Of a stretch of DNA of 64,000 bases, positions 5,108 through 59,265 are shown piece by piece. The translations under genes were made by a program, and so were the position numbers. The notes under the pieces are model-generated. The model made no database searches. It was not told where the DNA came from and saw only the letters and a program-made list of their open reading frames with translations. The stretch's first letter is position 1. Every line of letters begins with the position of its first letter. Location of the stretch: positions 110,718-174,717 of the IMG/VR virus record IMGVR_UViG_3300028591_000002; one strand, given 5' to 3'. This DNA is from a virus. Taxonomy: Duplodnaviria; Heunggongvirae; Uroviricota; Caudoviricetes.

Positions 5108-5494
5108 TCATAGAAATATAGCTAAAATCAACCCCATAAAAAGTCCTAGATTTAAACCACTAGAGAGATTAAGCCTGTTTTTTATCTTTTTAATCTTCTT
5201 TTGGTCAGATGCTACTTTTTCTTCATAGGTAGCTATCTCAGCAGTCCTTATGGAATCTTGAATAGTATAGTTATCTATAATTTTTTCTAATCCTTCTATT
5301 TGTAATTTTAGTAAGGGTTGTTCCTTCTTTAGTTCAGAATGTTCTGCAAATATAAGATTAGTAATTTTCAGTTGTTTTGGAGTTATTACTATTAAGGAGT
5401 CCTTCGTTGTTTGATACGTATCTTGTGAAAAAGACGATATCGGAATCAACAGGCTGATGAATAATATCAATCCTAACTTTACTATATTCTTCAT
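5108..5494 (-). CDS. hypothetical secreted/membrane protein
   Basis: 128 aa, N-terminal signal-like and C-terminal hydrophobic segment. Overlaps the 5358..5714 ORF in another frame, so one of the two may be spurious. Confidence 0.35.
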   Translation of the reverse strand: MKNIVKLGLILFISLLIPISSFSQDTYQTTKDSLIVITPKQLKITNLIFAEHSELKKEQPLLKLQIEGLEKIIDNYTIQDSIRTAEIATYEEKVASDQKKIKKIKNRLNLSSGLNLGLFMGLILAIFL

Positions 5495-5714
5495 GTATTT
5501 TAATCACTTCAACTTTTGCAGTATCAATAATAGACCATAAACTATCTCTTTGATAAGAAAGTCTATCAATTTTTCTTTCTAAACTGTTTATTTTCTTTAT
5601 TAGCTCAATATTAGAGTTATTCTCGGGAGGAGTATAATTATATATCCTCCACGAGAAGAAAGCGATAAACAAAATTACGAAAAATCCCGTTAACACCCAA
5701 AATTTTTTATCCAC
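5358..5714 (-). CDS. hypothetical membrane-anchored protein
   Basis: 118 aa, N-terminal TM helix. Overlaps 5108..5494. Confidence 0.4.
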   Translation of the reverse strand: MDKKFWVLTGFFVILFIAFFSWRIYNYTPPENNSNIELIKKINSLERKIDRLSYQRDSLWSIIDTAKVEVIKIHEEYSKVRIDIIHQPVDSDIVFFTRYVSNNEGLLNSNNSKTTENY

Positions 5715-8384: not shown

Positions 8385-9530
8385 TTAGACATAATTTTTC
8401 ACAAATTGTTGTGGTGTTAATTCTTGATTATAAGAATAATACCAATCTTCTATTGAAATTCCCTCTAATGATACCCATAAATCAAAATAAGATAAAGATG
8501 TTATCTTATAATCACCATTCATTAATACAGGAATCTTATCAAAATTATTAATACAATCCACATGAGTTAATATTATATTAAATTTCATGTGATATTTATA
8601 TTGATAATTTGATAAACAATGTCTATCAAAAGATGTTTTTAATAAAGAAAAATCAAATACTCCTCGTTTGAAAACACCTTGAATTCCAGTATCTAAATTA
8701 GAAGGTTCTTCTAAAGTAAAGTAATTTTCAAGTTCTGAAGAAAGCTGAGGTATATAACCATTACCATGTCTGGTAAGATATGGTCTCATTACAAAGAATA
8801 CTTCAGCATCATTCAATATTTCTGGATTTAATCCATTTAATCCAACTTTAGATGGAGTGCAGTTAGGCATAAATCCATGGTCCATATCCAAAAGTAATCC
8901 TTGAGAACCTTCATAAATGATTGTATCATAATCCTTTAAGAATAAAGGTTCTTCATAGAAAGAAGCATGTTCAACAAGCCATTTTATACTATCTATGAAC
9001 ATATCTTCAAACTCTTTTTCTGGAACGAACTTATGATACTCTCGTACTCCCTCTAAAAATTTCTCTGGGTCTTGAATTGCTTGTAGAAGTGTAGAATATT
9101 TAGATTCTTTACATCTTTTAAAAGTTTGATATATTCCCATTCCACAACTACCATTATTTAAATTATTGGAATCTTTAATATTAGAGAATACATCATAAGG
9201 TGTAATACATCTACAATTAAAAGAAATAGTAAGAGTTGGTATTATTCCTTTTGCTTCTAGAACTTCATATTCTTTTCTCATACAAATGGGGTCTACAAAA
9301 ACATTTTCATTAAGACAAGTATCAACGTCTAATAAAACTCCACTTCCATAAGAACTACAAATATGTTCAATACCATTATTTACTATTCTATGTCCTGCTT
9401 GAGGACCTCCAGAAAATCTTACTACAAGAGGTTTTTCTCCACGGTCAATGGCTTGTTTACAAAGCCACTGAACCGTAGAACCTTTTCCTTCATCCCCAAA
9501 AAAAGTTCCGAGGACTATTTGTTTTTTCAT
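8385..9530 (-). CDS. adenylosuccinate synthetase family protein (PurA / PurZ-like)
   Basis: N-terminal GTFFGDEGKGSTV P-loop typical of PurA (QWGDEGKGK), GGPQAGH, 381 aa. Confidence 0.8.
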   Translation of the reverse strand: MKKQIVLGTFFGDEGKGSTVQWLCKQAIDRGEKPLVVRFSGGPQAGHRIVNNGIEHICSSYGSGVLLDVDTCLNENVFVDPICMRKEYEVLEAKGIIPTLTISFNCRCITPYDVFSNIKDSNNLNNGSCGMGIYQTFKRCKESKYSTLLQAIQDPEKFLEGVREYHKFVPEKEFEDMFIDSIKWLVEHASFYEEPLFLKDYDTIIYEGSQGLLLDMDHGFMPNCTPSKVGLNGLNPEILNDAEVFFVMRPYLTRHGNGYIPQLSSELENYFTLEEPSNLDTGIQGVFKRGVFDFSLLKTSFDRHCLSNYQYKYHMKFNIILTHVDCINNFDKIPVLMNGDYKITSLSYFDLWVSLEGISIEDWYYSYNQELTPQQFVKNYV

Positions 9531-10417
9531 TATAATGTAATTTTAACAGTTTCTGTTTCTGTTGGTACATTAAAATCTGTAGAAGTTGAAGAAGAAGCTT
9601 GAGAAAAATCTCCAATACTCCTAAGAACAATATCTGAAATAGTAGGAATCAGATTATAATTTTCTCGTGGAAGAGCATAAACCTTATCTCCTCCAATGAG
9701 GTTTTTCCATTTATTAATTGTACTAATTCTATTTTCTCCAAAGTGAATATGATAAATATCCCACTTTTCTTTAACTTCTTCGATCAATTGATTTGAAGTT
9801 ATTCCAGCCTGTGCAGGATCTCCAAATAACTCTTCTATTGCATTCTTTGGAATTTCAGAAAGACAAGGTTCATCACCAAGAGTAATAAGAATACCTTTTT
9901 TATTTCTCTTCTCCCAAGCATCAGTTACAGTATGGCGAGATGCGAAATACCAAGCAAGATTGTAGCTTTCGCCAGTGTTTCCACCACCTCCTCTTTCAAG
10001 CCAAACTTTCTGAAGCCATTTCTCCATAAGTTCATCAGAACTTTCGAATTGACCACACTGAATTGGAGCATTATCACAATAACAATCACCAACACCAATA
10101 AAGCATACTTGAGCATCATTAACTCCAGAGTCTAAAATTGACTTCATAATCTCTGGAAATGAATTCTGAATCAAATCCATAGGAATATCACCCATACTTC
10201 CAGTAGTATCCAAAGCAACAATAATTGGAACAGAATTTGGATGCTCTTCAGAATCTCTACTTTCACGTATTTTACCTTTAATATTCATTTCTGAATCCAA
10301 TTTCCTTTGAGTAAAAGTCGTCTCCATAGCAGTATATGAATCCATACTTGCTGTAGCCAACTTTCTTGAAAAACTTCTTTCAGAAGCTAAAGAATAACTA
10401 TAAACACCAGTTCCCAT
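9530..10417 (-). CDS. von Willebrand factor A (vWA) domain protein
   Basis: MIDAS-like VALDTTGSMGD motif, 295 aa. Confidence 0.6.
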   Translation of the reverse strand: MGTGVYSYSLASERSFSRKLATASMDSYTAMETTFTQRKLDSEMNIKGKIRESRDSEEHPNSVPIIVALDTTGSMGDIPMDLIQNSFPEIMKSILDSGVNDAQVCFIGVGDCYCDNAPIQCGQFESSDELMEKWLQKVWLERGGGGNTGESYNLAWYFASRHTVTDAWEKRNKKGILITLGDEPCLSEIPKNAIEELFGDPAQAGITSNQLIEEVKEKWDIYHIHFGENRISTINKWKNLIGGDKVYALPRENYNLIPTISDIVLRSIGDFSQASSSTSTDFNVPTETETVKITL

Positions 10418-23197: not shown

Positions 23198-23271
23198 TAG
23201 GGACAACGGGACTTGAACCCGTATCTCCGCCTTGAAGGGGCGGCCACCTAACCTATTAGTAAGATATCCCC
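23198..23271 (-). tRNA. tRNA-Glu(TTC)
   Basis: Hand-folded cloverleaf. Anticodon stem ccgcc/ggcgg as in E. coli tRNA-Glu, loop ccTTCaa (C33 variant), T-arm acggg-ttcaagt-cccgt. Confidence 0.65.
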
Positions 23272-23276
23272 ATTAG

Positions 23277-23348
23277 AGCGAGTAATGGGAATCGAACCCA
23301 CATCTCCAGCTTGGAAGGCTGAAGCACTAGCCGTTGTGCTATACTCGC
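23277..23348 (-). tRNA. tRNA-Gly(TCC)
   Basis: Clean cloverleaf: acceptor gcgagta/tactcgc, D-arm gcac..gtgc, anticodon loop ctTCCaa, T-loop ttcgatt. Confidence 0.85.
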
Positions 23349-23489
23349 AGGTGGGATTTTTTCCTTAGGACCCCAAACCTTAGTTCCGTGTTACGTCTCT
23401 GAACCCCCGCTTAATCCTAAAATAGTATTTATTACGTAATTCAACTATAATAGTATTAAGATATTTTAATAAAAATATTCAAAAATATA

Positions 23490-23563
23490 GTGGAGCCTAT
23501 GGGAGTCGAACTCATGTCCCAGGCCTGAAAAGCTAGTGCTCTATCAACTGAGCTACTTTCGCA
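23490..23563 (-). pseudogene. tRNA-like chimera / tRNA pseudogene
   Basis: Canonical D-arm tagctcagttgatagagca and T-arm, but the 5' acceptor gcgaaag does not pair with the 3' end aggctcc and the anticodon stem has 2 mismatches. The 3' part is duplicated at 24319-24347. Confidence 0.35.
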
Positions 23564-23568
23564 TTATA

Positions 23569-24156
23569 TTATAATCCAAATTTTTTCAGTATTGAAAATT
23601 TATCCATTTGAGAAAACTGAGAAGATGTAACACTAAAGTTATTGGCACCATTACTAAATATTACACGATTAGAAAGTGATTCCATATGTTTAATATATTT
23701 AAGCACAGTATCACACTGTTCTTTGGTCCAATAAATAGGATTTTCATCATCAGTAATCCAATAAATTACTTCATTATTACGAATTTTAATAAATCCATTC
23801 CTCTCTAGGTCAAAATCAATACCATATCCAGTACGATTTTTTATATCAAATTTGTCTTTATAAAATTCATATACTTCTACTGCCAGAGCCATATGTACTA
23901 GTGATAATTCATCTGAATTCATCCCATAAAATTTTCCATCTGGTGCAATAAATCCAGTAGGCTCATCAAATTTAGTTATGTCTTCAGATACTTCATCAAG
24001 TGGCTCTTTTGATACCTCACATTCAATATTATCACAATTAAATTTAGTATATAGAGTTTCATTGATTTCATCCTCTAATTTATTCTCAGTAAAATGAGAA
24101 TGAACATCTATTGGTATAGATAACCAAACAGTTGCTCTAAATCTTCTTGAGTTCAT
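23569..24156 (-). CDS. hypothetical protein
   Basis: 195 aa ORF embedded in the tRNA array. Confidence 0.5.
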   Translation of the reverse strand: MNSRRFRATVWLSIPIDVHSHFTENKLEDEINETLYTKFNCDNIECEVSKEPLDEVSEDITKFDEPTGFIAPDGKFYGMNSDELSLVHMALAVEVYEFYKDKFDIKNRTGYGIDFDLERNGFIKIRNNEVIYWITDDENPIYWTKEQCDTVLKYIKHMESLSNRVIFSNGANNFSVTSSQFSQMDKFSILKKFGL

Positions 24157-24216
24157 TATTAAATATCATATTTTTTAAAGATTAAAATACATAGAGAATA
24201 GTGAATACGGACAAAT

Positions 24217-24288
24217 ACGGTTTTGTTGGAATCGAACCAACACATTCTGATTACAAGTCTGACGCTCTACCAAATGAGCTAAAAATCG
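24217..24288 (-). tRNA. tRNA-Thr(TGT)
   Basis: Cloverleaf with anticodon loop ctTGTaa; one A-A mismatch in the anticodon stem and one acceptor mismatch. Confidence 0.7.
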
Positions 24289-24318
24289 AAGTAACCGTAT
24301 TCATGACTACTATGTTTA

Positions 24319-24347
24319 GTGGAGCCTATGGGAGTCGAACCCATGTC
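24319..24347 (-). other. orphan tRNA 3'-fragment (T-arm plus acceptor 3' strand)
   Basis: tggagcctatgggagtcgaacccat, a near-identical copy of the 3' part of the 23490-23563 element; no 5' half nearby. Confidence 0.4.
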
Positions 24348-24607
24348 CAAAATAACTCAAATAAAGAAATTTAATACAGGTTTATAAATCATATAATAAA
24401 TTCTAAAATTCTCAGTGATAGTTAATGTCTCACAACATTATAAAAGTTTCTGTTACCAAGTACTTTTAAAACTCTGGCTTAGGCAGCCATGTTGAAATAA
24501 TCAATTTCAGCAGTTAATTTTAATTTGTCAAATTTAAAGACTTCAACGTGTCTACCTGATTTCTGTATTTAATATTATCTGTCAAAACCAAATAAGGCCC
24601 CGATTTG

Positions 24608-24695
24608 AGGAGATTGAGGGATTCGAACCCCCGGAACGTTTTACCGCCCTCTGGTTTTCAAGACCAGTACAATCGACCAACTCTGTCAAATCTCC
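24608..24695 (-). tRNA. tRNA-Ser(TGA)
   Basis: Acceptor ggagatt/aatctcc, anticodon arm ctggt-ctTGAaa-accag, long variable arm (type II). Confidence 0.85.
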
Positions 24696-24700
24696 AATAG

Positions 24701-24772
24701 GGGGCAGTGACGGAATCGAACCATCATAAAGGGAACCACAATCCCTTGTCCTACCGTTGAACGAACTGTCCC
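24701..24772 (-). tRNA. tRNA-His(GTG)
   Basis: Anticodon arm aggga-ttGTGgt-tccct, extra G-1 paired with C73 (His hallmark). Confidence 0.8.
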
Positions 24773-24782
24773 ATGTTCATCG

Positions 24783-24869
24783 CGGAAGCAGAAGGATTTG
24801 AACCTCCGAGCCAAATAATTGACTAACACCTTAGCAGGGTGCCGCTTTCGACCACTCAGCCATACTTCC
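24783..24869 (-). tRNA. tRNA-Ser(GCT)
   Basis: Type II tRNA, anticodon arm gcacc-ctGCTaa-ggtgt, discriminator G. Confidence 0.85.
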
Positions 24870-25306
24870 TAGTAATGAGTTTCTACATATTTGCAAGTTT
24901 TATATTTTTTATCATAAATATATCCACAATATAATTTATCATCTTCATACCAAAGAATCAAACGATTATCATTTTCCTTAATATTGAATTCTTTATGTCT
25001 TCCAAAAAAGTAACTATTGTATACAACAATAGCTTTTGTATTGTTTCTATTTCTTCTAATGATAACATTATCTTTATGAGGAGCTTTAATAAGGTAATTT
25101 CCTTCTCCCATAGAAATAACTGTTTCATCGTCATAATCGAATGGAGAATGAATATAAAGCCTCTCAATAGGTAAAGAATCTACAATTTCATACTTTTTAA
25201 AATCATGAAAATGAGCTACTCGTCTTGGAATAGACACTTGACTAAAGCTTACTATACTAAATATAGTAAATACAATTAATAAAAGATACTTTTTCATATA
25301 ACTCAA
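24869..25306 (-). CDS. hypothetical secreted protein
   Basis: 145 aa with N-terminal signal peptide. Confidence 0.5.
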   Translation of the reverse strand: MSYMKKYLLLIVFTIFSIVSFSQVSIPRRVAHFHDFKKYEIVDSLPIERLYIHSPFDYDDETVISMGEGNYLIKAPHKDNVIIRRNRNNTKAIVVYNSYFFGRHKEFNIKENDNRLILWYEDDKLYCGYIYDKKYKTCKYVETHY

Positions 25307-25322
25307 AATTTAAAATTATTTG

Positions 25323-25395
25323 TAGGAACGCTCAGATTCGAACTGAGGTGACAACCTTGTAAGGGTTGCATACTTAACCACTATATGACATTCCT
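25323..25395 (-). tRNA. tRNA-Val(TAC)
   Basis: Anticodon arm caacc-ctTACaa-ggttg, perfect acceptor aggaatg/cattcct. Confidence 0.85.
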
Positions 25396-25553
25396 TTTTT
25401 CCCATTTTACCTGTTGGGAATCAGTTTTACATTCCACTATCCCGTACAACTCTATTAAAGGAGCGTCTTTGCTTCTCACTCTTTAATTTTCGACTTTAAT
25501 GGTTGCCTACGGTAACTTCTTCCGCTTTTTATTCACGGATGTTTCCTTCTTTG

Positions 25554-25626
25554 CGGTTCCAACGGGATTCGAACCCGTACCACGCACCGTGACAGGGTGG
25601 TATTGTAGCCATTCAACCATGAAACC
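25554..25626 (-). tRNA. tRNA-Asp(GTC)
   Basis: Anticodon loop ctGTCac, T-arm acggg-ttcgaat-cccgt. Confidence 0.8.
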
Positions 25627-25631
25627 AAAAG

Positions 25632-25705
25632 ACTCCAGTATTGGATTTGAACCAATGAATAACAGTTTTGCAGACTGCCCTTTTAGACCACTCAAGCAAC
25701 TGGAG
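25632..25705 (-). tRNA. tRNA-Cys(GCA)
   Basis: Anticodon arm gcagt-ctGCAaa-actgt; perfect acceptor and T-arm; weak D-stem. Confidence 0.75.
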
Positions 25706-25710
25706 AATTG

Positions 25711-25784
25711 CGTGCCCTGAAGGATTCGAACCTCCATCCTCTGGTTTTGGAGACCAGCTTTTTACCAGTTAAAATAAAGACACA
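25711..25784 (-). tRNA. tRNA-Trp(CCA)
   Basis: Anticodon arm ctggt-ctCCAaa-accag; AT-only D-stem tttt/aaaa; acceptor gtgtctt with G-U pairs. Confidence 0.75.
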
Positions 25785-25948
25785 TTAGCACCTTCCATCG
25801 TGTATAGCTTTCCTATACCTTACTTAGTATACTCTCCCGATATACGTACAATAGCACTTCATGGGTTAATTTAATATAGAGGTACTAAACGTACTTAGTT
25901 AAATAACTCTTCTTGACAGATTTCACTCGTTGACCAGTGCAATTATAG

Positions 25949-26035
25949 CGTGCCCAGTAGGGATCGAACCTACGATGGGGATTTCTCCACGGCAGATTAA
26001 CAGTCTGCTGCCTTCAACCACTCGGCCATAGACAC
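25949..26035 (-). tRNA. type II (long variable arm) tRNA with GTT anticodon, Ser/Tyr-like body
   Basis: D-arm tggccgagtggttgaaggca (Ser-like), anticodon stem gcaga/tctgc identical to E. coli tRNA-Tyr, loop ctGTTaa, 18-nt variable arm, discriminator G. Confidence 0.6.
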
Positions 26036-26048
26036 TTTATGTATTATA

Positions 26049-26294
26049 TTATTTTATTTTTATTATATTTTCTTTATCATTTTCTCGTCGTATCCATCTC
26101 ATAAGAATAATTGCTTTATCATAGTGAGTCATAAATGTTGCACATTCACCAACGTCTTTTTTATCAGATAAATCAATTTCAAATTGATAAACATCACCGT
26201 GTTCTGTTGTAATGTTATATACTGCAATACCACCGCTTTTCATACAGTCTAGATCTGCAGATCCTTTAACTAATTCTTTTAAATTATAAATCAT
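26049..26294 (-). CDS. hypothetical protein
   Basis: 81 aa ORF. Confidence 0.4.
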   Translation of the reverse strand: MIYNLKELVKGSADLDCMKSGGIAVYNITTEHGDVYQFEIDLSDKKDVGECATFMTHYDKAIILMRWIRRENDKENIIKIK

Positions 26295-26489
26295 AATATT
26301 TCAAAAAAAAATAAAAAAAAATGAGTGTTTCTGATAATGCTGTGTTTAGATTGTCTTAATATCTAGTCCAAGTTTAGATATATATTTCTAATCATTTAAC
26401 TTATTGCTACAAAGGAGAGGCCTTCTCCGTTCACTATCCTTGGTCTTTGTACACTATTTCAATGAAACACCAATTATCTAGTTTTTAGT

Positions 26490-26557
26490 TGCGAGGGTGG
26501 GAATCGAACCCACGAAGTCTAGCTTATGAGACTAGATGGAATACCAATTCTCCTCGC
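26490..26557 (-). tRNA. tRNA-Met(CAT), elongator-type
   Basis: Anticodon arm ctagt-ctCATaa-gctag, T-arm gtggg-ttcgatt-cccac; short or atypical D-arm (68 nt). Confidence 0.55.
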
Positions 26558-26564
26558 TATATAG

Positions 26565-26640
26565 TGGAAACACTTGGAGTTGAACCAAAGGCCTTTGGTT
26601 TTTCAGACCAACGCGCAACAACCACCTACGCTATGTTTCC
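26565..26640 (-). tRNA. tRNA-Phe(GAA)
   Basis: Anticodon arm ttggt-ctGAAaa-accaa; acceptor ggaaaca/tgtttcc. Confidence 0.85.
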
Positions 26641-26646
26641 AATTAG

Positions 26647-26730
26647 TGGGAGGGGAGGGACTCGAACCCCCAGTCCATTTAAGGAGTGGATTTACAGTCC
26701 ACGCGGCTACCAGTTACCGGTTACCCTCCC
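26647..26730 (-). tRNA. tRNA-Tyr(GTA)
   Basis: Type II, anticodon arm gtgga-ctGTAaa-tccac, acceptor gggaggg/ccctccc, discriminator A. Confidence 0.85.
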
Positions 26731-26865
26731 TTATTGTTAAGACTTGTTCCATCTTAACAATTCTTTCAACTATTTCGTTTTCGATGAAATAGTAAATTCG
26801 ACCTATTTTTAACAGAGATAGGTTTCTGCCTAGTACTTCTGCCCCGTACTAGTAGGGGAACAATG

Positions 26866-26939
26866 TGGAGCCAGTGAGACTCGAACTCACGACTTTTTGC
26901 GTGCAAAGCAAATGCTCTAGCCAACTGAGCTATGACCCC
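26866..26939 (-). tRNA. tRNA-Ala(TGC)
   Basis: Anticodon arm tttgc-ttTGCac-gcaaa; G3-U70 identity pair present. Confidence 0.85.
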
Positions 26940-27085
26940 TTAAACCAAATCTACAATATGAACACCGTATTATAAGATACGTACAATTCCCTACCTCAGA
27001 CCGTCCTTTGGGTTTCCACCAAAATCATTCTTGCTGAATGCCTCTTCCACTTATAGAGTCTTATACCTCTAAACCTCGATTTGGT

Positions 27086-27421
27086 TTATTTAATGTTCTT
27101 ACCAATTTCCATACCTTTTTTAAATGCTTCTTCTGGAGAAACATCATACGGTTTATCTCCAAAAATAGGGTGTGAACATTGATATGTATTATAAATTATA
27201 TCACAAGTTTCCTTGTCATAATATCCTGCAAAATATCCAAAGTTAGACTTTGCTATTTTTTCTGCTTCAGCATACGTATTAACTTCTTTATAAGTATTAA
27301 GGATATGTTCTACATACGCTTTAAAGAAACTTATAGCTTTGTTCTTATTAGTTTTTGCATAACGAAGTGCTTCATCAAACACTTTTCCAATTGTATTAAA
27401 TTCTTTTCCTTCGTAAACCAT
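27086..27421 (-). CDS. hypothetical protein
   Basis: 111 aa ORF. Confidence 0.45.
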   Translation of the reverse strand: MVYEGKEFNTIGKVFDEALRYAKTNKNKAISFFKAYVEHILNTYKEVNTYAEAEKIAKSNFGYFAGYYDKETCDIIYNTYQCSHPIFGDKPYDVSPEEAFKKGMEIGKNIK

Positions 27422-27451
27422 ATTACTTATAAAATTTTAAATGTTTATTTG

Positions 27452-27524
27452 TCGGGATAGCAGGACTCGAACCTACTCCGCTTGGTCCCAAACCAAGTAT
27501 GCTACCATTAAACACCATATCCCG
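27452..27524 (-). tRNA. tRNA-Pro(TGG)
   Basis: C1-G72 acceptor (Pro hallmark), anticodon arm cttgg-ttTGGga-ccaag. Confidence 0.85.
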
Positions 27525-27618
27525 AGTTACCCCTTCAAAGAAGGGGCTGGCTGTTGCATAAGCAACCGAAATGATTAATATATTTTTTTATATTTAAACT
27601 CAATCTTATCTTCGCAGA

Positions 27619-27963
27619 TTAGAAATGAGTCCATTTATTTTCTTCTTTATTATAATTTACTTTAGCTAATTTATATATCATATTTAAATCTTCAACCGAT
27701 TTAATAATCAAAAAATTAGAATTAAAATTATTTCCTAATTGTCCAGTAAAATTAAATTCATCGGAATACATCAAATTTGATACAATTACATTAGCATAGA
27801 TACCATCACCTTTTTCATAACGTTTAGTTAGTTTAGCTTCCCAAACATCAAAATCTATAACTTTCTCAATACATATATTGTATCCATTTTCTTCAAAATA
27901 TTTTCTAGTTAATTTTTCCATAATATATTTAATTTTTTGAGCCTCTTGTCGGATTCGAACCAA
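27619..27963 (-). CDS. hypothetical protein
   Basis: 114 aa ORF. The true start is probably the internal Met, which avoids overlap with the adjacent tRNA. Confidence 0.45.
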   Translation of the reverse strand: MVRIRQEAQKIKYIMEKLTRKYFEENGYNICIEKVIDFDVWEAKLTKRYEKGDGIYANVIVSNLMYSDEFNFTGQLGNNFNSNFLIIKSVEDLNMIYKLAKVNYNKEENKWTHF

Positions 27964-28013
27964 CGACCCCGAGATTACAAATCACGTGCTCTGGCCAACT
28001 GAGCTAAAGAGGC
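27940..28013 (-). tRNA. tRNA-Thr(TGT)-like (second copy)
   Basis: Perfect acceptor gcctctt/aagaggc, D-arm gctc..gagc, anticodon loop ttTGTaa with one U-U mismatch in the stem. Confidence 0.6.
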
Positions 28014-30584: not shown

Positions 30585-30633
30585 ATTCTCTCAGTTTAAT
30601 ATGTTATTAATAAATTGGGAGGATGGAAGTTGT

Positions 30634-30703
30634 GCTACGTTTTGGAATCGAACCAATTATAGAGAATTTAAAATACTCTGTGTTACCATTACACCATACG
30701 TGC
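30634..30703 (-). tRNA. tRNA-Gln-derived tRNA with UUA anticodon (ochre/amber-suppressor-like), possibly degenerate
   Basis: Body nearly identical to tRNA-Gln(TTG) at 29872 (tggtgtaatggtaacac). Anticodon arm gagta-ttTTAaa-ttctc with one U-U mismatch. The acceptor stem pairs over only 4 bp. Confidence 0.45.
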
Positions 30704-31003
30704 TAATCAAAATTACGTTTCTTATTGAAGAACAAATATATTAATTTTTTCTTTCCTAAAAAAATAATTTTTGTTAAAAAAATAGAAGAGAAATATTAAA
30801 GATACCTCAGCTTTAATTTTCCCTTCTATTGTTGGTATTTTTACCCCGTAGCATGATTATGGTATGCCCTTACCACCAACGCTTCATGTTGAACATTGGA
30901 GAAAGTCAACATCTTTGTAGATTGATGTAAACTGAGGTAGTATTTAGATTATTAAGGGGAAAGGTTATACTTTACTACATTTTTTTACCTTTCCCCTATA
31001 AAA

Positions 31004-51619: not shown

Positions 51620-51952
51620 TTATTTTTTATACTTTTTTATTAACTCTGCAATATCACTTCCCAAAAGTATTAGAAAAAATGGGGATAATATGATAGAAAA
51701 TGGGATAGCTAATACAACTACCCAGAATTTATCTCCAGAATTCCCTATAAGTCTTTCATGCATATAGGGAATTCCGAACATTAAATATATTACAAGTAGA
51801 GCTATTGTCATAAATTTTTCCAAATATAAGCAAATCCTATTCCCAACATTATAGGGCAAAGGATTGGCCCAAGTATTAAAGAAAATAATGACACAATAAA
51901 AAAAGAGCCACAATTTGAGCTGTCTCCTGCGAATACTTCTACCGTGAAGCAC
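51620..51952 (-). CDS. hypothetical polytopic membrane protein
   Basis: several TM helices. Confidence 0.4.
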   Translation of the reverse strand: MLHGRSIRRRQLKLWLFFYCVIIFFNTWANPLPYNVGNRICLYLEKFMTIALLVIYLMFGIPYMHERLIGNSGDKFWVVVLAIPFSIILSPFFLILLGSDIAELIKKYKK

Positions 51953-51955
51953 ACG

Positions 51956-52300
51956 CTAAACAAATAATAGGCGAGCAGAAGTGCTACTACAAAGATTGTG
52001 ATAATCATGTTTATCATAGGATTGTTTCTTTAACTTATCACGCACTTCCTTAGGCACATACTTCTTCTTACCTTGGAAGTCATAATAGTAATAACCACCT
52101 CGACTACCTTTGTAGATAGGATATCTTCTACCATCTACTTCGATAGTAAAAGAAGTTTTAGTTTCGTTGGATTTCTCTTTACTTTTTTCAGTAGATTTCT
52201 CCACTTTGAAAGTGCTACCAATCTGCGTTACTTTTTGTGTTTGTGCACTTACACAAAGACTGGAAAGTAACATAACCAGCATAAAGATGATCTTTCTCAT
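51956..52300 (-). CDS. hypothetical secreted protein
   Basis: signal peptide, Lys-rich. Confidence 0.4.
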   Translation of the reverse strand: MRKIIFMLVMLLSSLCVSAQTQKVTQIGSTFKVEKSTEKSKEKSNETKTSFTIEVDGRRYPIYKGSRGGYYYYDFQGKKKYVPKEVRDKLKKQSYDKHDYHNLCSSTSARLLFV

Positions 52301-52369
52301 GTTGTTTTATTTTTTAAAGATAAAGAGTAATACTTTTGGCTTTCAGTTCTTTTTGAATCTCCTGAGGGT

Positions 52370-52669
52370 TTACTTTTGCCATGTTTCAATCCATTCTTTC
52401 TCCTTTGTTTGTATTTGTTCTTCTAATTCTTTCGAATGAGAATTAACCCAACTTTTTAGTTTTTCAAAATCGTTGGTCTCAAACAAAGGTTTTTCGATAG
52501 AACACATCTTTTTCATTACTGCATAAGTAGCAGTAATTACTCCATTGTTGTTCCTAAAGAATGTATATAGTACCCAATCAGAGAATACCATATTGGAGGT
52601 TCCTAACAAATAATCGCTTTTCGCTAAGTATTCTGTAGCTAAAGCATGAGAGTTTAATTCTAGTTTCAT
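52370..52669 (-). CDS. hypothetical protein
   Basis: 99 aa ORF; preceded by a conserved ~200-nt leader repeat (see findings). Confidence 0.4.
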   Translation of the reverse strand: MKLELNSHALATEYLAKSDYLLGTSNMVFSDWVLYTFFRNNNGVITATYAVMKKMCSIEKPLFETNDFEKLKSWVNSHSKELEEQIQTKEKEWIETWQK

Positions 52670-52682
52670 GATTGATGGGGTT

Positions 52683-52880
52683 TAATTGTGTTTTACGCCT
52701 AAAACTTATAACCTGTATAGGAAATCTCGACGGCCCCCAACTCACTTAATGGATGGGATATTTAAGATTTTACATAAGAAAAACTGGCGTCCTCAACATC
52801 TTGGAAATCTCCATGCAGGCAGTATCCTGCGCTTCTCTTTTTGATTAGGAGATATTTTATATTGAGTTTTTAAAATGATT
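52683..52880 (-). promoter_or_regulatory. conserved ~200-nt 5' leader, copy 1 (contains hairpin gttttacgcctaaaac immediately upstream of the start codon)
   Basis: Shares the blocks ttttac(g/a)cctaaaactta, aactggcgtcctcaac...cttggaaa and tt(g/t)tattgagttttt(t)aa with 54960-55170. Confidence 0.45.
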
Positions 52881-52899
52881 CAGTAAAAAGCTTTCCGCA

Positions 52900-53130
52900 T
52901 AAAAAACCCAAATCTCATGATATGGATCCGAAATCATCATGATTTTTTTGTTTTTGCCATTATTTATAGTCCCAGAAAAACCCAATAAGGACTAGAGAAA
53001 ATGGTTCGGTAAAAGCATTATGCATGAAACCCGAACCCCCATGAATTATTCGAAACTATCATGATTTTTTGTCTTTACTGTGTTTTATAGTCCCAGAAAG
53101 ACCAAAGAAGACTCCTGCAGAGGAGGAGAT
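52900..53130. repeat. two tandem ~110-nt direct repeats
   Basis: ...catgatttttttgtttttgccattatttatagtcccagaaaaacccaataagg... vs ...catgattttttgtctttactgtgttttatagtcccagaaagaccaaagaag... Confidence 0.5.
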
Positions 53131-54360
53131 GCTTACAATAACTCTACTATTAGAAGAGAATGACTCTTAACACCATAGTAGCAGTTAATAAGGAGGATGT
53201 TTTTCTATAGGCGGCTATGTTCTTCCTGCTATTTGATGTTATCTCACAGGCCTTTTTTTACTTTCCTATAGAATCCGTTTCGTCTTAATTTGCAAAGACT
53301 CTTCAGGGAGCATCTACACTCCGACGGAAGAAAATTTCAAAGGGAAGAACTGTTTTAAATACACAGTTCTCCCCTTTCACGCGTGCCATATTTTACTTTC
53401 TCTTGAAGCAAATATGATTATACAACAAGTACAATCTCCTCAGATGATTGTTACTTTATTCTTAGCCTTGCAATCGACTAAAAATACACTACTCTTAGTA
53501 GTGGTCTCAAGCTAGTTTCGAGACTATTGCACCTAACCCTCTTGGCAAGTTAGAATCTCGCCAGTGTTAAAGAGAATTACTGGACTTTATTATTCAAATC
53601 TTTTACTGGAGCTATCAGTAATTAATTCTAGCGTGTGTTTGTCTGGAACACGCATCCTTCCATAGATAGTTCTCTATCGACGATTCCACCAGGCATTTTT
53701 GAACATTATACAAATAGTCTTGTATTGACCAAATGCTCAATAGCCTATCCCCTCGTGGACTTGGTGGAAAATTTCAGCTGATTTAAGTCGGTCAAAACTA
53801 TAGTGCTTTTAAAAAAAATGAAAAAATTTAAAATGCACTTAGGGTTTTGTGCGAACCCATTAAAATTAAAATACCATAATATTTGGAGGATAGATTAATG
53901 CCTTCTTGCCCACTATTAGGTAGTTTAGAATTTAAAAGGGAGAACATTACTGCTCTCCCTCTTCCCCCATCACCAACCTATATTATTACAGGGTAGATTG
54001 GTTCCCTATTTAAGGTGAGAAGTTTGGTATTCTCCCCTGGACTCTAGCCAGACCAATGGTTCATTGACTTACAATTATACCATCAACTTAGCACCCCTTT
54101 ACTCAAGAGGGGAAACTAAGAGCCACTATGTGAGTGAGTATCACACGCCCATCCTTCCAACACTGGGAATCCGCGTAGCAACGTTTGCACGGAAGGACTA
54201 CAACTATTTGTAGCTGTTATATGCAAACTGATATTGTTCTCTCCGCCAGAATCGGACTGGGCTTATTTTTTTCGAAGTTCCTCACCCAAGGTTTCATTAG
54301 AACTACGGGAAGCTACACCACAACTTCCTGAGAGAGAGTTTAACTTTTAAAAGTTTCCAG

Positions 54361-54390
54361 AATAAAAAAGCTCCCTCACGGTTTGGGAGC
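54361..54390 (-). terminator. rho-independent terminator (minus strand)
   Basis: agctccc-tcacggttt-gggagct hairpin with A8 on the plus side (U-run on the minus transcript). Confidence 0.6.
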
Positions 54391-54738
54391 TGTTCCAAAC
54401 ATTTGAACACGACCTCTTACAATGTACAAAGAAGGTAGTTTGGGCACTACGATACTAATATGCTGGCACACAAAAGTATTACGGAATCATCTTACTGCCA
54501 GATAAGATGAAACATTGTCCTATATTTCAAGGGAATTTACTCCTTGTCACTAACCGTAGAACTCAGATTTTTTTATTATCCAGTTAAATAGTGTGATGCT
54601 ATAAAACTTTAAGTGTATTCACCTTATTTTACATCGAATGATACACCTCGATGTTCCAGCTCGCGAACTGGATTTTGAGAGTTTTAGATACACTCCCGTT
54701 TAACACACATACTTTTCGGCAATCCAATACGGCTTTCC

Positions 54739-54951
54739 TTATGTGTGTTCTATAACCCATTTTGAACCATCCCATTTTACTGGCTTAGCACCATCGCTGA
54801 TGCCTGCGTATGTGCAGTTTACAGAATCTGATCCGTAACGGAAACAATCTGCACAATAGCATTTGCCATTATCTGGGTCAAAACATCCGTTGCCGTCATA
54901 GACATGGATAATTTTCCCATCTTGGTTAGTCCATCCCATATAATTTGCCAT
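54739..54951 (-). CDS. small Cys-rich protein (70 aa)
   Basis: MANYMGWTNQDGK...8 Cys; preceded by the conserved leader copy 2 and followed by ~340 nt of 3' UTR and the terminator. Confidence 0.4.
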   Translation of the reverse strand: MANYMGWTNQDGKIIHVYDGNGCFDPDNGKCYCADCFRYGSDSVNCTYAGISDGAKPVKWDGSKWVIEHT

Positions 54952-54959
54952 ATTTCACC

Positions 54960-55170
54960 ATAATGCGTTTTACACCTAAAACTTATTCTTTCTCATATCT
55001 GGGTATGCATCATGCAGACAGCCCGACCCGTCAATTGGAAGGAACTTAATCCTTACAACCCAATTGCTCATAGGCGAATAAGAAACTGGCGTCCTCAACG
55101 ACTTGGAAACATACATAATTTCGGTAATCCAATACTATATATGCTTTTGTATTGAGTTTTTTAATTCTTA
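54960..55170 (-). promoter_or_regulatory. conserved ~200-nt 5' leader, copy 2 (hairpin gttttacacctaaaac)
   Basis: Same conserved blocks as 52683-52880. Confidence 0.45.
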
Positions 55171-56461
55171 TAGATAATTAAATTAAGGCTGAGTGTTGAC
55201 CTTTAATGCTGTCTTTTCTATCTTTTTCAAGAATATCACACACCTAGGATTAGTAGGTAGACAACATACGGACTAGTTTTTGATAACTAGCTATCACTAC
55301 TCTCATATTATGTAGATTACTAGCTCGCTCATGGTGCTTGCGGCCAAACAGGATGCCTCCTGAACCCAGATGAGTCTACTTTCACCTTTACATTTTCCTT
55401 GCGGTACTCATGTAATCCACGTATTTCAGTGGAACAACCGTATTTTCATACGAGAGTGTACAACACTTTTGCTAACTAATGTTTTTTACAAATTAAATGC
55501 ACCAAATGCACTTTTTGTTTGCGTATAACTTTAATTAGAGCTTTGCCTGGAAGATGTGGTTGTACTTGTCACCATACTGGCTTTTGACCAGCTACAGGTG
55601 CGACACCTCCCTGTTTTCTTCTGCCACGAATACTCACTTTTAATAGTTTTATTTATCCTACCATTTCTGACTCAAGTAACCAGCTGAAGCCTCTTATTGG
55701 TTAAGAGATAGGACATTACTATTAAATTATATACTCTATTGGACTGGCAATCCTTTGGAGTATATTTATACCATATATTGTCGATGTTACCATCCAAGGT
55801 AGGTTAGCAAGACCCACCGTATACCTCTTCAACTCTGCCCGAGTATCCCAAGATATACTCATATGATATAGCTTTCAGGTGGACATTTGTTTACACAAAT
55901 GCGCATACTCTTTCTAAAGGAGCACACTTTATAGCATTACTGCTTTATCCTAAAGACACGAAGCCTGCCTCTCCATCATCCTTCACATTAATTCCGTAGA
56001 ATTGTGTGCCGACTACTTTGGACTTGTCGGGTGTAGATTTAAGAGGTTGTTCCCCCAAAAATTGAGGGAACTTATCGATTCTAGATTGTAGAAGGTATGG
56101 CAATCCACGCCATATCTCCATACTTAAGAGTTTTTCTCACAACAAATGTTGGAGGTTTTTCTTCTGATTTTAGCAATTTGTTTAGGACGTTTCGGTGTAT
56201 CCACAATAAACGTCCATTTTGTTGGAAACAAATGCTATTCCTCGACATTCTAATGATGTTCAAAGGAAAGTGGATTTCGATTATTTCCATTTTGCAAAAT
56301 GTATATTTTCGGTGTTTTGAAATATTTTTTTAGGAAAAAAAGTGGAAATTTCTGGGGGAGGATAACAGTACCAACAACCGACACTGTCCACTCAGAAATT
56401 TCCAAGAGGAATTTTCAGAAGAGAAATGATATTCTAATCAAAATCTCTCCTGAAAATAGTT

Positions 56462-56911
56462 TTACTGACGGATAATTTGAAACCATCCATTCTCCTCAGC
56501 AGTTGAAACAGGAACAGTACAAGACTCCTCATACTCGAAAACACGAGTAATAGTAAGCTTGCCATTATTATCATGATTATACCCGCCGTCATACTTACTT
56601 CTTGCTGCATCAGCCTCTTCCTGAGACTCAAAGTATTTAGTATAACCTTCAATGTAGGTGATACGGATGTTAGTTCTGTCGTCAGACAACTTTGCTCCAA
56701 GTAGCTTGATGCATTTCTCGTTCTTATTGAGATTAGCTTCAACAGCCCCTCTAGGATTAATGGTTTTAATAGCAGTTGCTATTCCCATAACCAAAGACTC
56801 TAATGCATCCTCTCCGGCTTGGCCCAATGAAAATACTGAGGCCAATCTGTCCTCGAAACGCATATTTTCCTTTGCCTGACCAATAATGAATCTTGCTAAT
56901 GACTTTCTCAT
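56462..56911 (-). CDS. hypothetical protein (GC-richer island)
   Basis: 149 aa ORF with codon composition distinct from the rest of the window. Confidence 0.5.
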   Translation of the reverse strand: MRKSLARFIIGQAKENMRFEDRLASVFSLGQAGEDALESLVMGIATAIKTINPRGAVEANLNKNEKCIKLLGAKLSDDRTNIRITYIEGYTKYFESQEEADAARSKYDGGYNHDNNGKLTITRVFEYEESCTVPVSTAEENGWFQIIRQ

Positions 56912-57201
56912 TGTAATTTCCTCCTTATTTTAGTTGGTTAAAATTCAGTTAATTTGGCAACTATGCGACGAATGTCGACCGCCCACCCACGTGAAGGTGT
57001 TGCCGTGTGGACGATTTTAGAGACCACTGTCTCAGGGAATTTCAACCCATTGTTTCACTCTAATTTCTAGACGAGGATTAAATAATACCTCGCCTAGAAC
57101 TATGAAGTCTCCCGACTTTTTGGGAAGGTTCTTGCCGAGTAAAAGGAAAGACCGCCCATCAACAGACAATCTTTTACCTTTTACTTTGCCCCTGACAGTT
57201 G

Positions 57202-57753
57202 TCAGGAAAGCTTGCAGCATGGAACTTTTACCTTGCGAACTCCCACGATTTCACCGTCACGCCAACGAGCGGACTGCACCTCAGGGGTGTTGGTAATCTC
57301 GAGAGTGTGATCGGCCAACAGCTCGATCACTTCTTTCTCTGTAGGTGACGCCATAACGGCCTCATAGAACTTCTTTTCGTCAGTGTCTCCGAGTGTACCA
57401 GCATTCTCAGCAGAGCCAGTTGGCTCAGCACTATCATTGTATACTGGCACACTCTTGTAGAGTGAGTTCAAGTATACGCCCTTAGCACCGCCATTGGCCA
57501 TAGGAAGCGAGATACAGGTGTACGTACGAGAATTGAAATTCACCTGATAGAGAAGATTCTTCAACTCGTCAAGAGTAGGAATCACAAACTTGTCTCCCTT
57601 ACGCAAGGTGGACAGGGAAACGTCAGTGATAGACTTGTTACCAAGCCCATCATAAATTGTGCTGCCACTTTGCTGGTTGGTACCAGCTGTCATACGCTTT
57701 CTCAAATTCTCAGCGGCAGATTTCTGAGAAGCGTTCAATGTAATTTTCGACAT
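57202..57753 (-). CDS. hypothetical protein (GC-richer island)
   Basis: 183 aa ORF. Confidence 0.5.
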   Translation of the reverse strand: MSKITLNASQKSAAENLRKRMTAGTNQQSGSTIYDGLGNKSITDVSLSTLRKGDKFVIPTLDELKNLLYQVNFNSRTYTCISLPMANGGAKGVYLNSLYKSVPVYNDSAEPTGSAENAGTLGDTDEKKFYEAVMASPTEKEVIELLADHTLEITNTPEVQSARWRDGEIVGVRKVKVPCCKLS

Positions 57754-57909
57754 ATACGAAATACATTTAAATTAAACATACACATAACACACACATACAA
57801 CTGCAATACATAGCCTGCAGCCGTATACATATTAGATTGTTTTACATTTGGCTACATATTCGAACCCCAATGGGTCGCCGAAGCAACCCAAGAGGTAAAA
57901 AAGTGGAGG

Positions 57910-58392
57910 CTATGCCTCCACGAAAGTAAGTGCAGATGCAGGGTAAGTTCGATTTTCCCATCTACCCACATAAGACAAACGAGCAACACGCCAACGTTGA
58001 GTAGCAGGTTTTGCACCTAAATAAGTGCAAACACTTGCATTTGTTCTATCTTCATTTCTTCTTTGCGGAAGTGCTCCCGTGAGTTCGTGAATTTCTCCCA
58101 TAGCATCCACCACACTAACAGACTTGAAAAGTCCAAGCGTAGCGTTAAATTCAACACCGTTTTGATTTTTCACTCGGACGGTGTAGTTGAGATTTTCAGA
58201 ACGAACACCGTCAAGAGTATATTCCTGAGCGTTGCACATAATCGTGCCGTCAGAGTTCCTTACGAGTTCTATTGTGTCGTTTGCTGCAAACGGACACGAA
58301 GAACGTTTTTGTGCGTCGGTATTCTGAACACCCGCACAAAAGTCAGCCCAAGTAATTTGCTTTAACTGACCTGTTAATTGAAACTTTGCCAT
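57910..58392 (-). CDS. hypothetical protein (GC-richer island)
   Basis: 160 aa ORF. Confidence 0.5.
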   Translation of the reverse strand: MAKFQLTGQLKQITWADFCAGVQNTDAQKRSSCPFAANDTIELVRNSDGTIMCNAQEYTLDGVRSENLNYTVRVKNQNGVEFNATLGLFKSVSVVDAMGEIHELTGALPQRRNEDRTNASVCTYLGAKPATQRWRVARLSYVGRWENRTYPASALTFVEA

Positions 58393-58489
58393 AATAAAAG
58401 GATTTAGAGTGAAACATTGTGGCAGAGCCGACTCGACGAGCCACCCTACCTATTACTATAGATTTTACTTACGAATTGACTACTTTTTC

Positions 58490-58522
58490 CTTACGCTGAC
58501 CCCCGGGGGGTCTAAGCGTAAG
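58490..58522. promoter_or_regulatory. large imperfect palindrome in a divergent intergenic region (candidate operator or origin element)
   Basis: cttacgctgaccccc|ggggggtctaagcgtaag. Confidence 0.4.
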
Positions 58523-58570
58523 TGTACTCTCTCCCTCGTAATTTTCAAAAAAAATTTTCTTTCTGGAATA

Positions 58571-58579
58571 GGGGGGGGG
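58571..58579. repeat. G9 homopolymer
   Basis: ggggggggg in an otherwise AT-rich intergenic region. Confidence 0.6.
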
Positions 58580-58658
58580 ATTAAGAATTGTTAACATCTA
58601 TTAACTTGTATTTAAGATTGACAAATACTATCTTTGTTTCAGTTAAAATAAAAAAGTT

Positions 58659-59000
58659 ATGAATGAAAAAGAATTAATAAAAGCGGTAATTGCACTTCTA
58701 AAATTAAATTTAGAAGAGCATACTTCAGTTAATGACAATGGAACTGAATATAGTGTAGATTTGATAGTGAAGGACAACAAATTAGACCTTCATATAGAAA
58801 AAAGAGAAGATGAATTTGAAAATTGGGTTAAAACACTTGATGACGAATTATTTCAAAATGCTTTAGAAAGAACAGTAGAAGCCTTTGATGTAGATACAGT
58901 TTCTGAAATTGAAGATAAAGAAGAATTAAAAAATGTATTTAAAAATATGGTTTCAAAGATTGCTACTGAAAGAATTGAACAATTAAAGCAATATGTTTAA
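58659..59000 (+). CDS. hypothetical acidic protein
   Basis: 113 aa ORF; one of the few plus-strand genes. Confidence 0.5.
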   Translation: MNEKELIKAVIALLKLNLEEHTSVNDNGTEYSVDLIVKDNKLDLHIEKREDEFENWVKTLDDELFQNALERTVEAFDVDTVSEIEDKEELKNVFKNMVSKIATERIEQLKQYV

Positions 59001-59265
59001 AGAAACAGCACAAGCCTTAAATGCTATTCATATTTTGGATAGAAATTTTACAGACTTATTAAATCAATGTAACGAAGTGCGAGAAGAAATTCAAGCACTT
59101 CGTTTAGAAAATGAAAAATTAAAACAAGAAATTAAATCCTTAAAATTGCCCTATGGTGTAACGGCTAGCACAGGTGGCTCTAACCCATCTGGTCTGGGTT
59201 CGAATCCTAGTGGGGCGACCAATACAGAAAAAGATGATAAAATTTTTAATGAAAGTACTGGTTAA
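58993..59265 (+). CDS. hypothetical coiled-coil protein (the 3' part is probably not coding)
   Basis: The N-terminal 50 aa look coiled-coil. The remaining frame runs through the suppressor tRNA (the GSNPSG-type translation is typical of tRNA sequence), so the true end is uncertain. Confidence 0.25.
   Translation: MFKETAQALNAIHILDRNFTDLLNQCNEVREEIQALRLENEKLKQEIKSLKLPYGVTASTGGSNPSGLGSNPSGATNTEKDDKIFNESTG
59147..59221 (+). tRNA. tRNA-Sup(CTA): amber suppressor, Gln-derived, with genomically encoded CCA
   Basis: tgcccta-tg-gtgt-aacggcta-gcac-a-ggtgg-ctCTAac-ccatc-tggt-ctggg-ttcgaat-cctag-tggggcg-a-cca. D-arm like tRNA-Gln at 29872; anticodon CTA at 59180-59182. Confidence 0.8.

Follow-up and report, generated by a model that had tools for sequence, protein, structure and literature searches.

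The window analysed here is a 64,000-nucleotide stretch of a rumen phage (IMG/VR record IMGVR_UViG_3300028591_000002, positions 110,718 to 174,717). It is AT-rich, with an overall GC content of 0.317, holds almost every gene on the minus strand and carries 28 tRNAs and a transfer-messenger RNA (tmRNA), suppressor-type tRNAs included. Between positions 52680 and 58620 lies an island of raised GC content, in which we identified a GOLLD-class RNA, a hammerhead ribozyme, two copies of a leader RNA, a structured module that we call modX and two ultra-conserved orphan stretches, T4 and T5, together with four small protein genes. A locus of long structured non-coding RNAs (ncRNAs) was one of the options raised for this island by the original prediction, and is the one that these elements bear out.

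The GC content of the island is 0.396, against 0.309 for the remaining window. This value is extreme among sliding windows of the same size (5.9 kb; mean 0.320, standard deviation 0.026), of which the maximum, 0.397, starts at 52601 and the highest beyond the island reaches 0.356. The island is therefore real, but the abrupt shift first described for both edges was observed only on the right, where GC drops from 0.43 (58250-58549) to 0.27 (58550-58849); the left edge is gradual, with 0.33-0.37 from 52550 and 0.45 not before ~53900. The scarcity of open reading frames (ORFs) was confirmed, with ~3.3 kb lacking any ORF of more than 70 amino acids (aa). Start-to-stop ORFs of at least 50 aa at 52845-56096 are just 54739-54951(-) with 70 aa, 55370-55528(+) with 52 aa and 55945-56121(-) with 58 aa, and the longest stop-to-stop frame in this gap has 92 codons. 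The three ORFs at 56.4-58.4 kb are compositional outliers, as had been suspected: the GC content at third codon positions (GC3) is 0.33-0.52 in orf160, orf183, orf149 and the smaller ORF70, against 0.11-0.25 in 13 other window genes. Intrinsic terminators are mildly enriched (8 seen, 4.3 expected) and include the strong terminator of the original prediction, at 57903-57921 and followed by T6. Its border palindrome (58490-58522) and G9 run (C9 on the other strand, 58571-58579) were also found. The tandem repeats proved to be two adjacent ~118-nt copies that are ~75% identical; otherwise there is a trivial array of two 11-nt units (57775-57797). The whole island gave zero BLAST matches against 50,697 GenBank phages. 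Two related contigs serve for comparison below, L029 (89% identical) and L031, a 179,950-nt phage contig (91-94% identical), both collinear with the window over the 58.6-kb border.

Within the ORF-poor stretch, a match to Rfam RF02032 and a block of homology delimit an RNA of ~867 nt at 55181-56047(-). The model aligned end to end (positions 1-416) at 55186-55611(-) with 95.3 bits and E=7e-25 to 1.4e-24, a score that lies below the Rfam gathering score of 150. The length is given by the homology block at 56047-55181, which is shared with the loci L034-L036, reached through homologs of ORF70, at identities of 85% and 69%, and also with L031. The RNA consists of a conserved 3' domain (55186-55611(-)) and a variable 5' domain (55612-56047(-)), which are 96.0% and 99.3% identical to L031, respectively. 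The long-range pseudoknot helix is intact, with ACUCUCGUAU and AUAUGAGAGU pairing at 10 of 10 positions, and the loops CGCAAG and GCCGCAAGC and the 3' GGUCAACACUCAGCCU are conserved. Using RNAalifold on four variants we obtained 83 pairs with 20 compensatory ones for the 3' domain, and 126 pairs with 35 compensatory ones at -98 kcal/mol for the 5' domain, counts that, like those for modX below, use structures predicted on the same four-sequence alignments. In 20 column shuffles the 5' domain reached only -33 to -48 kcal/mol with 5-14 compensatory pairs, and its antisense -66 kcal/mol. On this homology and covariation we identify the ~867-nt RNA as a divergent member of the GOLLD class.

GOLLD RNA (RF02032) reportedly goes back to Weinberg et al. 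2009. As in known GOLLD RNAs, the RNA of the window covers the whole 3'-domain model, keeps the signature long-range helix and has a separate, more variable 5' domain of ~430 nt, in a tRNA-rich phage. Unlike them it scores under the gathering threshold and is without an adjacent or embedded tRNA, the closest being at ~3.1 kb (59147) and ~5.9 kb (49258), and it is flanked by a hairpin motif on its 5' side and by a leader RNA on its 3' side. The hairpin, CTACACCCGACAnGTCCAAAGTAGTCGGCAC, takes up the first ~37 nt of the block (56006-56042(-)) and is 95% identical to L007 2295-2331, a locus in which the GOLLD 3' domain was not detected; perhaps it is a module of its own, for a promoter or a 5' end. 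GOLLD RNAs have been described as exceeding 800 nt, with a conserved 3' and a variable 5' region, and as occurring in phages near tRNA islands (PMC12286853). The structure solved by cryo-electron microscopy forms a 14-mer cage, expression climbs at lysis, and members were called at an E-value cut-off of 1e-5 (Kretsch et al. 2025; PMC12286853).

The leader RNA lies directly 3' of the GOLLD RNA. A covariance model, R1, made from 21 leader copies, has exactly two matches in the window, copy 1 at 54959-55164(-) (77 bits, E=4e-12) and copy 2 at 52682-52874(-) (91 bits, E=7e-15), which agrees with the two copies of a conserved leader in the original prediction. Across all sequence searched it has 32 matches, so that the leader is represented by at least 32 copies on 27 phage-like contigs. 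Exact matches to the 25-base core occur in 18 IMG/VR contigs (15-183 kb), and a slightly looser pattern matches 7 contigs of metagenome-assembled genomes from varied bins. Copy 1 ends 8 nt ahead of ORF70, and the order of GOLLD followed by leader is common to the window, L031 and L034. Elsewhere the leader 3' end is 13-30 nt ahead of unrelated small ORFs, or ahead of further non-coding sequence.

All copies have three conserved segments with variable stretches between them. From 5' to 3' these are AAAAAACUCAAUAUAAAAU; the P1 hairpin with a variable interior of 5-117 nt; UUCCAAGAUGUUGAGGACGCCAGUUU; P2 with a variable interior of 20-190 nt; and GUUUUAGGYGUAAAACACAA. The segments pair into two arms, P0-loop-P1 and P3-loop-P2, in which P0 (CUCAAU/GUUGAG) encloses P1 and P3 (ACGCC/GGYGU) encloses P2, with ~60 near-invariant junction bases and a single-base link between the arms. 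The invariant loop bases are UUCCAAGAU and AGUUU/UUUUA. When the 32 copies are aligned by the model, 90.7% of the cells are paired, compared with 78% in shuffled alignments and 32-43% when the partners are slid, and 16 of 25 pairs have changed on both sides. None of 500 shuffles matched the observed values, and a hand-made alignment agrees. This alignment was fitted to the model and the core served as the search pattern, so that the invariance of the core is partly by construction. P3 shows double changes from ACGCC/GGYGU to ACGGC/GCCGU, ACACC/GGUGU and GCACG/CGUGU at several loci. Folding of the two leaders as single sequences gave z-scores of only -1.1 and -0.4, so the structure becomes visible just by comparison across copies.

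The tips of P1 and P2 are recurring sub-modules that are mobile among positions and phages. In L031, copy 1 carries a completely different P2 insert, with flanks that are 91-99% identical and a compensated stem base (CTTAT/ATAAG vs CTTGT/ACAAG). We also noted tandem or second, more divergent leaders at L010 759-1044(-), in L015 and L018 (two each) and at L006 5667-5825(+). One divergent leader lacks P1 and has a compensated P3 (ACACC/GGUGU), and another has an unrelated P3 (GCACG/CGUGU).

No leader match was found among the 4227 models of Rfam 15, twister, twister-sister, pistol, hatchet, hairpin, HDV-like and RAGATH models included, at E<=10 on 3.9 kb for both copies and at E<=10 on 261 nt for copy 2. 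Set against Rfam 15, the leader RNA appears from its sequence to be undescribed; another 8,495 candidate phage RNAs, unnamed and catalogued in bulk (PMC10690425), lie outside this comparison. Two other identities were considered and rejected. The core resembles the reverse complement of the 3' end of tRNA-Met with 3 mismatches in 17, which we judged to be chance. An element of the integron attC or TnpB reRNA kind was set aside, as the cassette ends lie off the leader and there is no transposase or TnpB gene nearby.

In architecture the leader is like the hairpin ribozyme, being built from two helix-internal loop-helix domains joined by a hinge, with its conserved bases in both internal loops and variable outer stems. 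Unlike in that ribozyme the loop sequences are unrelated, and no Rfam ribozyme model matches in the 261-nt search, so the likeness is architectural. A functional analogy is offered by HK022 put and other processive-antitermination RNAs, which are cis-acting, have two stems and sit at the starts of transcription units; a phage genome has more than one put-type RNA, whichever gene lies downstream. The leader differs from these in having no sequence or Rfam similarity to them.

Further along the minus strand we found a predicted self-cleaving type III hammerhead at 53272-53330(-). It matches the full RF00008 model with 39.4 bits (E=3e-6 on 3.9 kb), under the gathering score of 48.5. The core is canonical, with CUGAAGA...GAAA, A15.1-U16.1 closing stem III and a GUC triplet, after C53323 of which cleavage is predicted. 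Stem I is GGAG(U)...(G)CUCC, stem II GUCUU...AAGAC and stem III, which is open, UCCG/CGGA. A terminator-like hairpin precedes the hammerhead by 40-60 nt; the ribozyme is kept in L031, where it is ~40 nt ahead of the orf226 start codon. In six loci, L007, L018, L021, L011 and L016 among them, a same-strand hammerhead occurs 0.3-1.4 kb upstream of a leader. With its canonical 11-nt core, three stems and phage context with structured RNAs nearby it resembles other hammerheads of phages and mobile elements (RF00008, RF03152). It differs from the RAGATH-1 variant (RF03152) of related phages in being type III, and its activity is predicted from sequence.

Immediately after the hammerhead begins a cassette of 930 nt (52334-53265(-)), comprising a short module (53209-53266(-)) homologous to the P1 insert of the L012 leader, the two ~118-nt direct repeats of ~75% identity (52998-53110 and 52872-52989), leader copy 2 and ORF99, of 99 aa (52370-52669(-)), which follows the leader. 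The cassette is not in L031, in which the hammerhead joins the orf226 5' untranslated region (UTR), with the junction directly behind the ribozyme, and we therefore treat it as an insertion or deletion.

Between the hammerhead and ORF70 lie three further non-coding elements. ModX (54363-54597(-)) is a structured module of ~230 nt that ends in an intrinsic terminator (stem 54369-54391, then T6). Homologs are present at L007 2370-2588 (E=7e-12) and L010 104-285 (E=6e-10), and four sequences gave 45 RNAalifold pairs, of which 21 are compensatory. T4 (53935-54362(-), ~430 nt) has terminators at both bounds, and with 0.43 the non-coding GC content of the island peaks here. Relative to L031 it shows two substitutions and a small cluster of insertions and deletions, and a 200-nt core (54051-54249) is identical. 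Its minimum free energy (MFE) is -136 kcal/mol (z=-3.2), with no equally stable fold among 100 shuffles. It has no match in Rfam, and searches for homologs with nhmmer on the retrieved loci, with an 18-mer in IMG/VR and with a 17-mer in metagenomes returned chance matches and the known near-identical contig only. T5 (53335-53934(-)) has an AT-rich variable head at ~53750-53934 and a conserved body of ~400 nt, and ends in a terminator-like hairpin (53342-53374) with a T-rich tail. It is 95% identical to L031, the differences being concentrated at 53750-53949, and has no Rfam match and no homolog past near-identical strains. From these comparisons both stretches appear to be undescribed.

At its right end the island is separated from the divergent orf113(+) by an intergenic region with a border module (58466-58561(-)), made up of the conserved G-rich box GGGAGAGAGTACAC, the palindromic hairpin 58490-58522 with a CCCCCC apex, and then GGAAAA; the C9 run 58571-58579 lies just upstream. 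The module is 96-99% identical in L029 and L031, and nhmmer found it in seven other loci (L010, L016, L021, L022, L023, L024 and L034). Stem sequences vary between loci, and no consensus structure was obtained with RNAalifold. Between orf183 and orf149 is an untranslated stretch of 290 nt (56912-57201(-)), which is 96% identical to L029 and 94% to L031, compared with 80-88% for the flanking genes. Part of it, 56948-57061, is also in L034 (E=1e-11), and the stretch is probably a structured 5' UTR of orf149.

The proteins of the island are small. Orf160 (57910-58392(-), 160 aa, GC3 0.33) is an ORFan with the terminator at 57903-57921 behind it. The public call of 186 aa (57910-58470(-)) crosses several stops, and a start at ATG 58392 yields a clean frame of 160 aa that is kept in L029 and L031. 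In L003, a contig from another sample that is 98% identical, 26 nt are absent (57903-57928), taking with them the orf160 stop codon and one arm of the terminator. Orf183 (57202-57753(-)) marks the GC peak of the island, with 0.476 overall and a GC3 of 0.52. It has 24 remote, unannotated homologs and a confidently predicted structure (pLDDT 90.7), for which there were no significant structural neighbours, only weak resemblances to OB-fold and single-stranded DNA-binding (SSB)-like proteins. Orf149 (56462-56911(-)), a second small ORFan, is preceded by the Shine-Dalgarno sequence AAGGAGG and followed by a hairpin (56412-56456) and a terminator (56343-56405, then T7); a homolog in L021 is 32% identical, and PHROG matches are weak. 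ORF70 (54739-54951(-)) is a Cys-rich protein with homologs of 64-94% identity on record; in L034-L036 it has another position relative to GOLLD. Pfam and PHROG scans of seven local ORFs returned nothing meaningful, with no match for orf160 in either, and no relatives of orf183, orf160 or a 213-aa flanking gene were found in IMG/VR.

Synonymous to nonsynonymous codon differences against L031 are 62:8, 37:11 (orf160) and 27:18 (orf149), and the pattern against L029 is alike (42:10 for orf160, 73:6 for orf183 and 32:30 for orf149); ORF70 has 12:12 against L031. This pattern indicates that orf160, orf183 and orf149 are real genes under purifying selection. The non-coding elements are more conserved. 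Identity to L031 is 99.3% for the GOLLD 5' domain, 98% for the hammerhead and ~97-99% for T4, compared with 85-88% for the genes and 82% for an AT-rich spacer. The untranslated stretches between ORFs are 92-96% identical to L029 and 90-99% to L031, against 80-88% for the ORFs. These alignments show modX, T4, T5 and the untranslated regions to evolve far more slowly than the synonymous sites of the neighbouring genes. A comparison with L003 was uninformative on selection, with one substitution and one 26-nt deletion.

Taken together, we consider it very likely that the island is a conserved leftward (minus-strand) expression locus of a ~178-kb AT-rich rumen phage in which structured-RNA genes dominate over proteins. 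Its GC content would be raised because folded RNAs need G-C pairs in a genome of 30% GC, as in the tRNA arrays of the phage, and also because the four small resident genes have GC-richer codons than the rest of the window. The chimeric join feared in the original prediction is scarcely credible. Composition does jump sharply at 58550, and two contigs assembled independently, L002 and L033, terminate in or near leader copy 2, but a repeated element would itself yield contig ends at the leader. L002, obtained in another sequencing run, shows 100% identity across 52782-58900, and L033 99.5% across 52712-56030; L029 and L031 continue past 58620, and L031 is collinear into the left flank too, the cassette excepted. 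An artificial junction is thereby excluded at the 58620 border. The window is part of a 178,305-nt contig assembled from an ENA metagenome, and pieces identical or near-identical to it also occur in one Logan run and one JGI sample. Almost as remote is the idea that the ORF-free stretch encodes proteins in another code, with TGA, TAG or TAA reassigned. The phage does have suppressor-type tRNAs with anticodons CUA and UUA, and the flanking gene orf226 has a conserved in-frame TAG. Even so, the longest stop-to-stop ORFs at 52700-56460 are 128 aa with TAG, 107 aa with TGA and 154 aa with TAA read through, each shorter than the mean for composition-matched random sequence (129, 139 and 165 aa). 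The non-coding stretches share 95-99% identity with L031 and show no excess of third-position changes, compared with 85-88% for real genes nearby, and the segment 55560-55680, originally thought to be protein-like if TGA is read through, falls inside GOLLD, where it straddles the start of the 3' domain.

A recently acquired, non-phage module, with GC content and codon usage brought from the donor, would account for the GC3 values of orf160, orf183, orf149 and ORF70, for the 930-nt cassette that L031 lacks and for proteins without annotated homologs, yet we regard such an origin as improbable. The order of elements in L029 and L031 is that of the window despite heavy substitution at synonymous sites, which argues that the island genes are old residents whose composition has been maintained. 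In distant phage contigs the order of orf113, border module, orf183-like and orf149-like genes, hammerheads and leader is repeated; with homologs of orf113, orf183 and orf149 adjoining border modules, hammerheads and leaders there, the framework is a conserved feature of this phage group and no foreign insert. All homologs found are on phage-like contigs, and the RNA genes hold much of the GC excess (hammerhead 0.46, T4 0.43). Horizontal acquisition, as first proposed, thus stands for one leader-plus-ORF cassette and not for the framework, which is syntenic in related and in distant leader-bearing phages. A rival of more weight, though one we still think doubtful, concerns the leader, which might act mainly as DNA, its invariant box AAAAAACTCAATATAAAAT being a phage-specific promoter and the hairpins secondary. 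The box is invariant and AT-rich, contains a -10-like TATAAAAT without a -35 element, as in the late promoters of phage T4, and has unrelated small ORFs downstream; in L015, L018 and L021 a terminator-like hairpin stands immediately 5' of it. Covariation in P0 is low, with one or two compensatory events only, which is why the box could be a promoter instead of part of the RNA. Against this, P1, P2 and P3 covary strongly and accept inserts of up to ~190 nt, as suits RNA helices better than a promoter, and P0 itself is paired to 97%; L010_901 has compensated variants, and L013 a change that preserves the wobble. The box directly follows GOLLD with no intervening terminator in the window, L031 and L034, and never occurs without the rest of the leader within the 64 kb. 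A promoter would also be compatible with a role as RNA.

Several of the results given above weigh against the locus as we read it: the GOLLD score under its gathering threshold, covariation counted on structures from the same alignments, a leader core whose invariance is partly built in, and the few changes in P0. To these we add that a sigma-70 promoter scan stayed at chance level, and that sliding-window MFE z-scores are similar in the island and its flanks (-1.86 vs -1.63). The structure of T4 and T5 is argued from conservation and a single z-score, without diverged homologs. Promoters, RNA ends, hammerhead activity and co-transcription are inferred, and multimerisation of the GOLLD RNA is assumed by analogy with one solved homolog.

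Some further observations concern the rest of the window and another contig. In orf226, a predicted membrane protein (51620-52300(-)), the in-frame TAG (51953-51955) is at the same site in L031, and the public gene caller reads through it. For orf226 at least, amber read-through or recoding is thus suggested, in keeping with the CUA tRNA at 59147-59221. The tRNAs at 59147-59221(+), 30632-30704(-) and 46431-46507(-) comprise suppressor types (CUA, UUA) and one with an anticodon loop of 8 nt (uuca). The CUA tRNA is overlapped, in the same orientation, by a predicted ORF of 90 aa (58993-59265(+)), so that one of the two predictions is probably spurious. The tmRNA (24317-24601(-); Rfam, 72.5 bits) lies within the tRNA array 23198-28013 and encodes the tag peptide AEIDYFNMAA. 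An Rfam tRNA match 168 nt long at 43805-43972(-) may reflect a tRNA gene interrupted by ~95 nt of inserted or intron sequence. At 8385-9542(-) is an adenylosuccinate-synthetase-like gene (PurA/PurZ-like, Pfam E=3e-33), and the leader-bearing contig L004 has a sub-threshold match to YrlA, a Y RNA-like RNA, by a tRNA array (5429-5547(-), 39 bits, E=5e-5).

How might the conserved locus work? The units would be transcribed as short, terminator-bounded RNAs with some read-through. By analogy with the solved homolog, the GOLLD RNA would fold and probably self-assemble into a multimeric cage during lytic growth. The hammerhead may cut read-through transcripts, splitting the upstream ncRNA from the downstream mRNA and leaving the latter with a 5'-OH. 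Each downstream unit would begin with the leader as an RNA module acting in cis, and we favour a role as a processing or stabilising element that may also set the 3' end of GOLLD; less favoured are antitermination acting on RNA polymerase and self-cleavage as a new ribozyme. Leader-plus-ORF cassettes would be gained and lost, and the P1 and P2 tips exchanged, by recombination through the invariant leader segments. A bolder proposal, which we think unlikely, is that the leader represents a new functional RNA class with docking internal loops, either self-cleaving, so as to free GOLLD or other large RNAs and produce 5'-OH mRNAs, or polymerase-modifying. The P1 and P2 tips would then be exchangeable sockets for accessory RNA modules, while T4 and T5 would count as additional large, undescribed RNAs belonging to one 'RNA operon' with it and might work jointly with the GOLLD cage.

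The island is like the ROOL/GOLLD islands of ncRNAs and tRNAs in large phages in that its RNA genes form a block of few ORFs and raised GC within an AT-rich phage genome, and the same window bears the array of 28 tRNAs and tmRNA, also of raised GC. It is unlike them in standing apart from the tRNA arrays and in mixing RNA genes with small ORFans and repeated leader cassettes. GOLLD and the hammerhead are thus of a known kind in divergent form, while the leader, T4 and T5 appear to be undescribed. The function of GOLLD has long been an open question, and the locus supplies a divergent member in a defined, conserved neighbourhood, where the leader, the hammerhead and small conserved proteins, and no flanking tRNA, offer partners and processing steps that can be tested. 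The leader is widespread, covarying and modular, is without an Rfam match and adjoins hammerheads, whose neighbourhoods have previously yielded new self-cleaving ribozymes. In AT-rich phages, GC-rich blocks free of ORFs would be a practical flag for islands of RNA genes, and not for recoding or misassembly.

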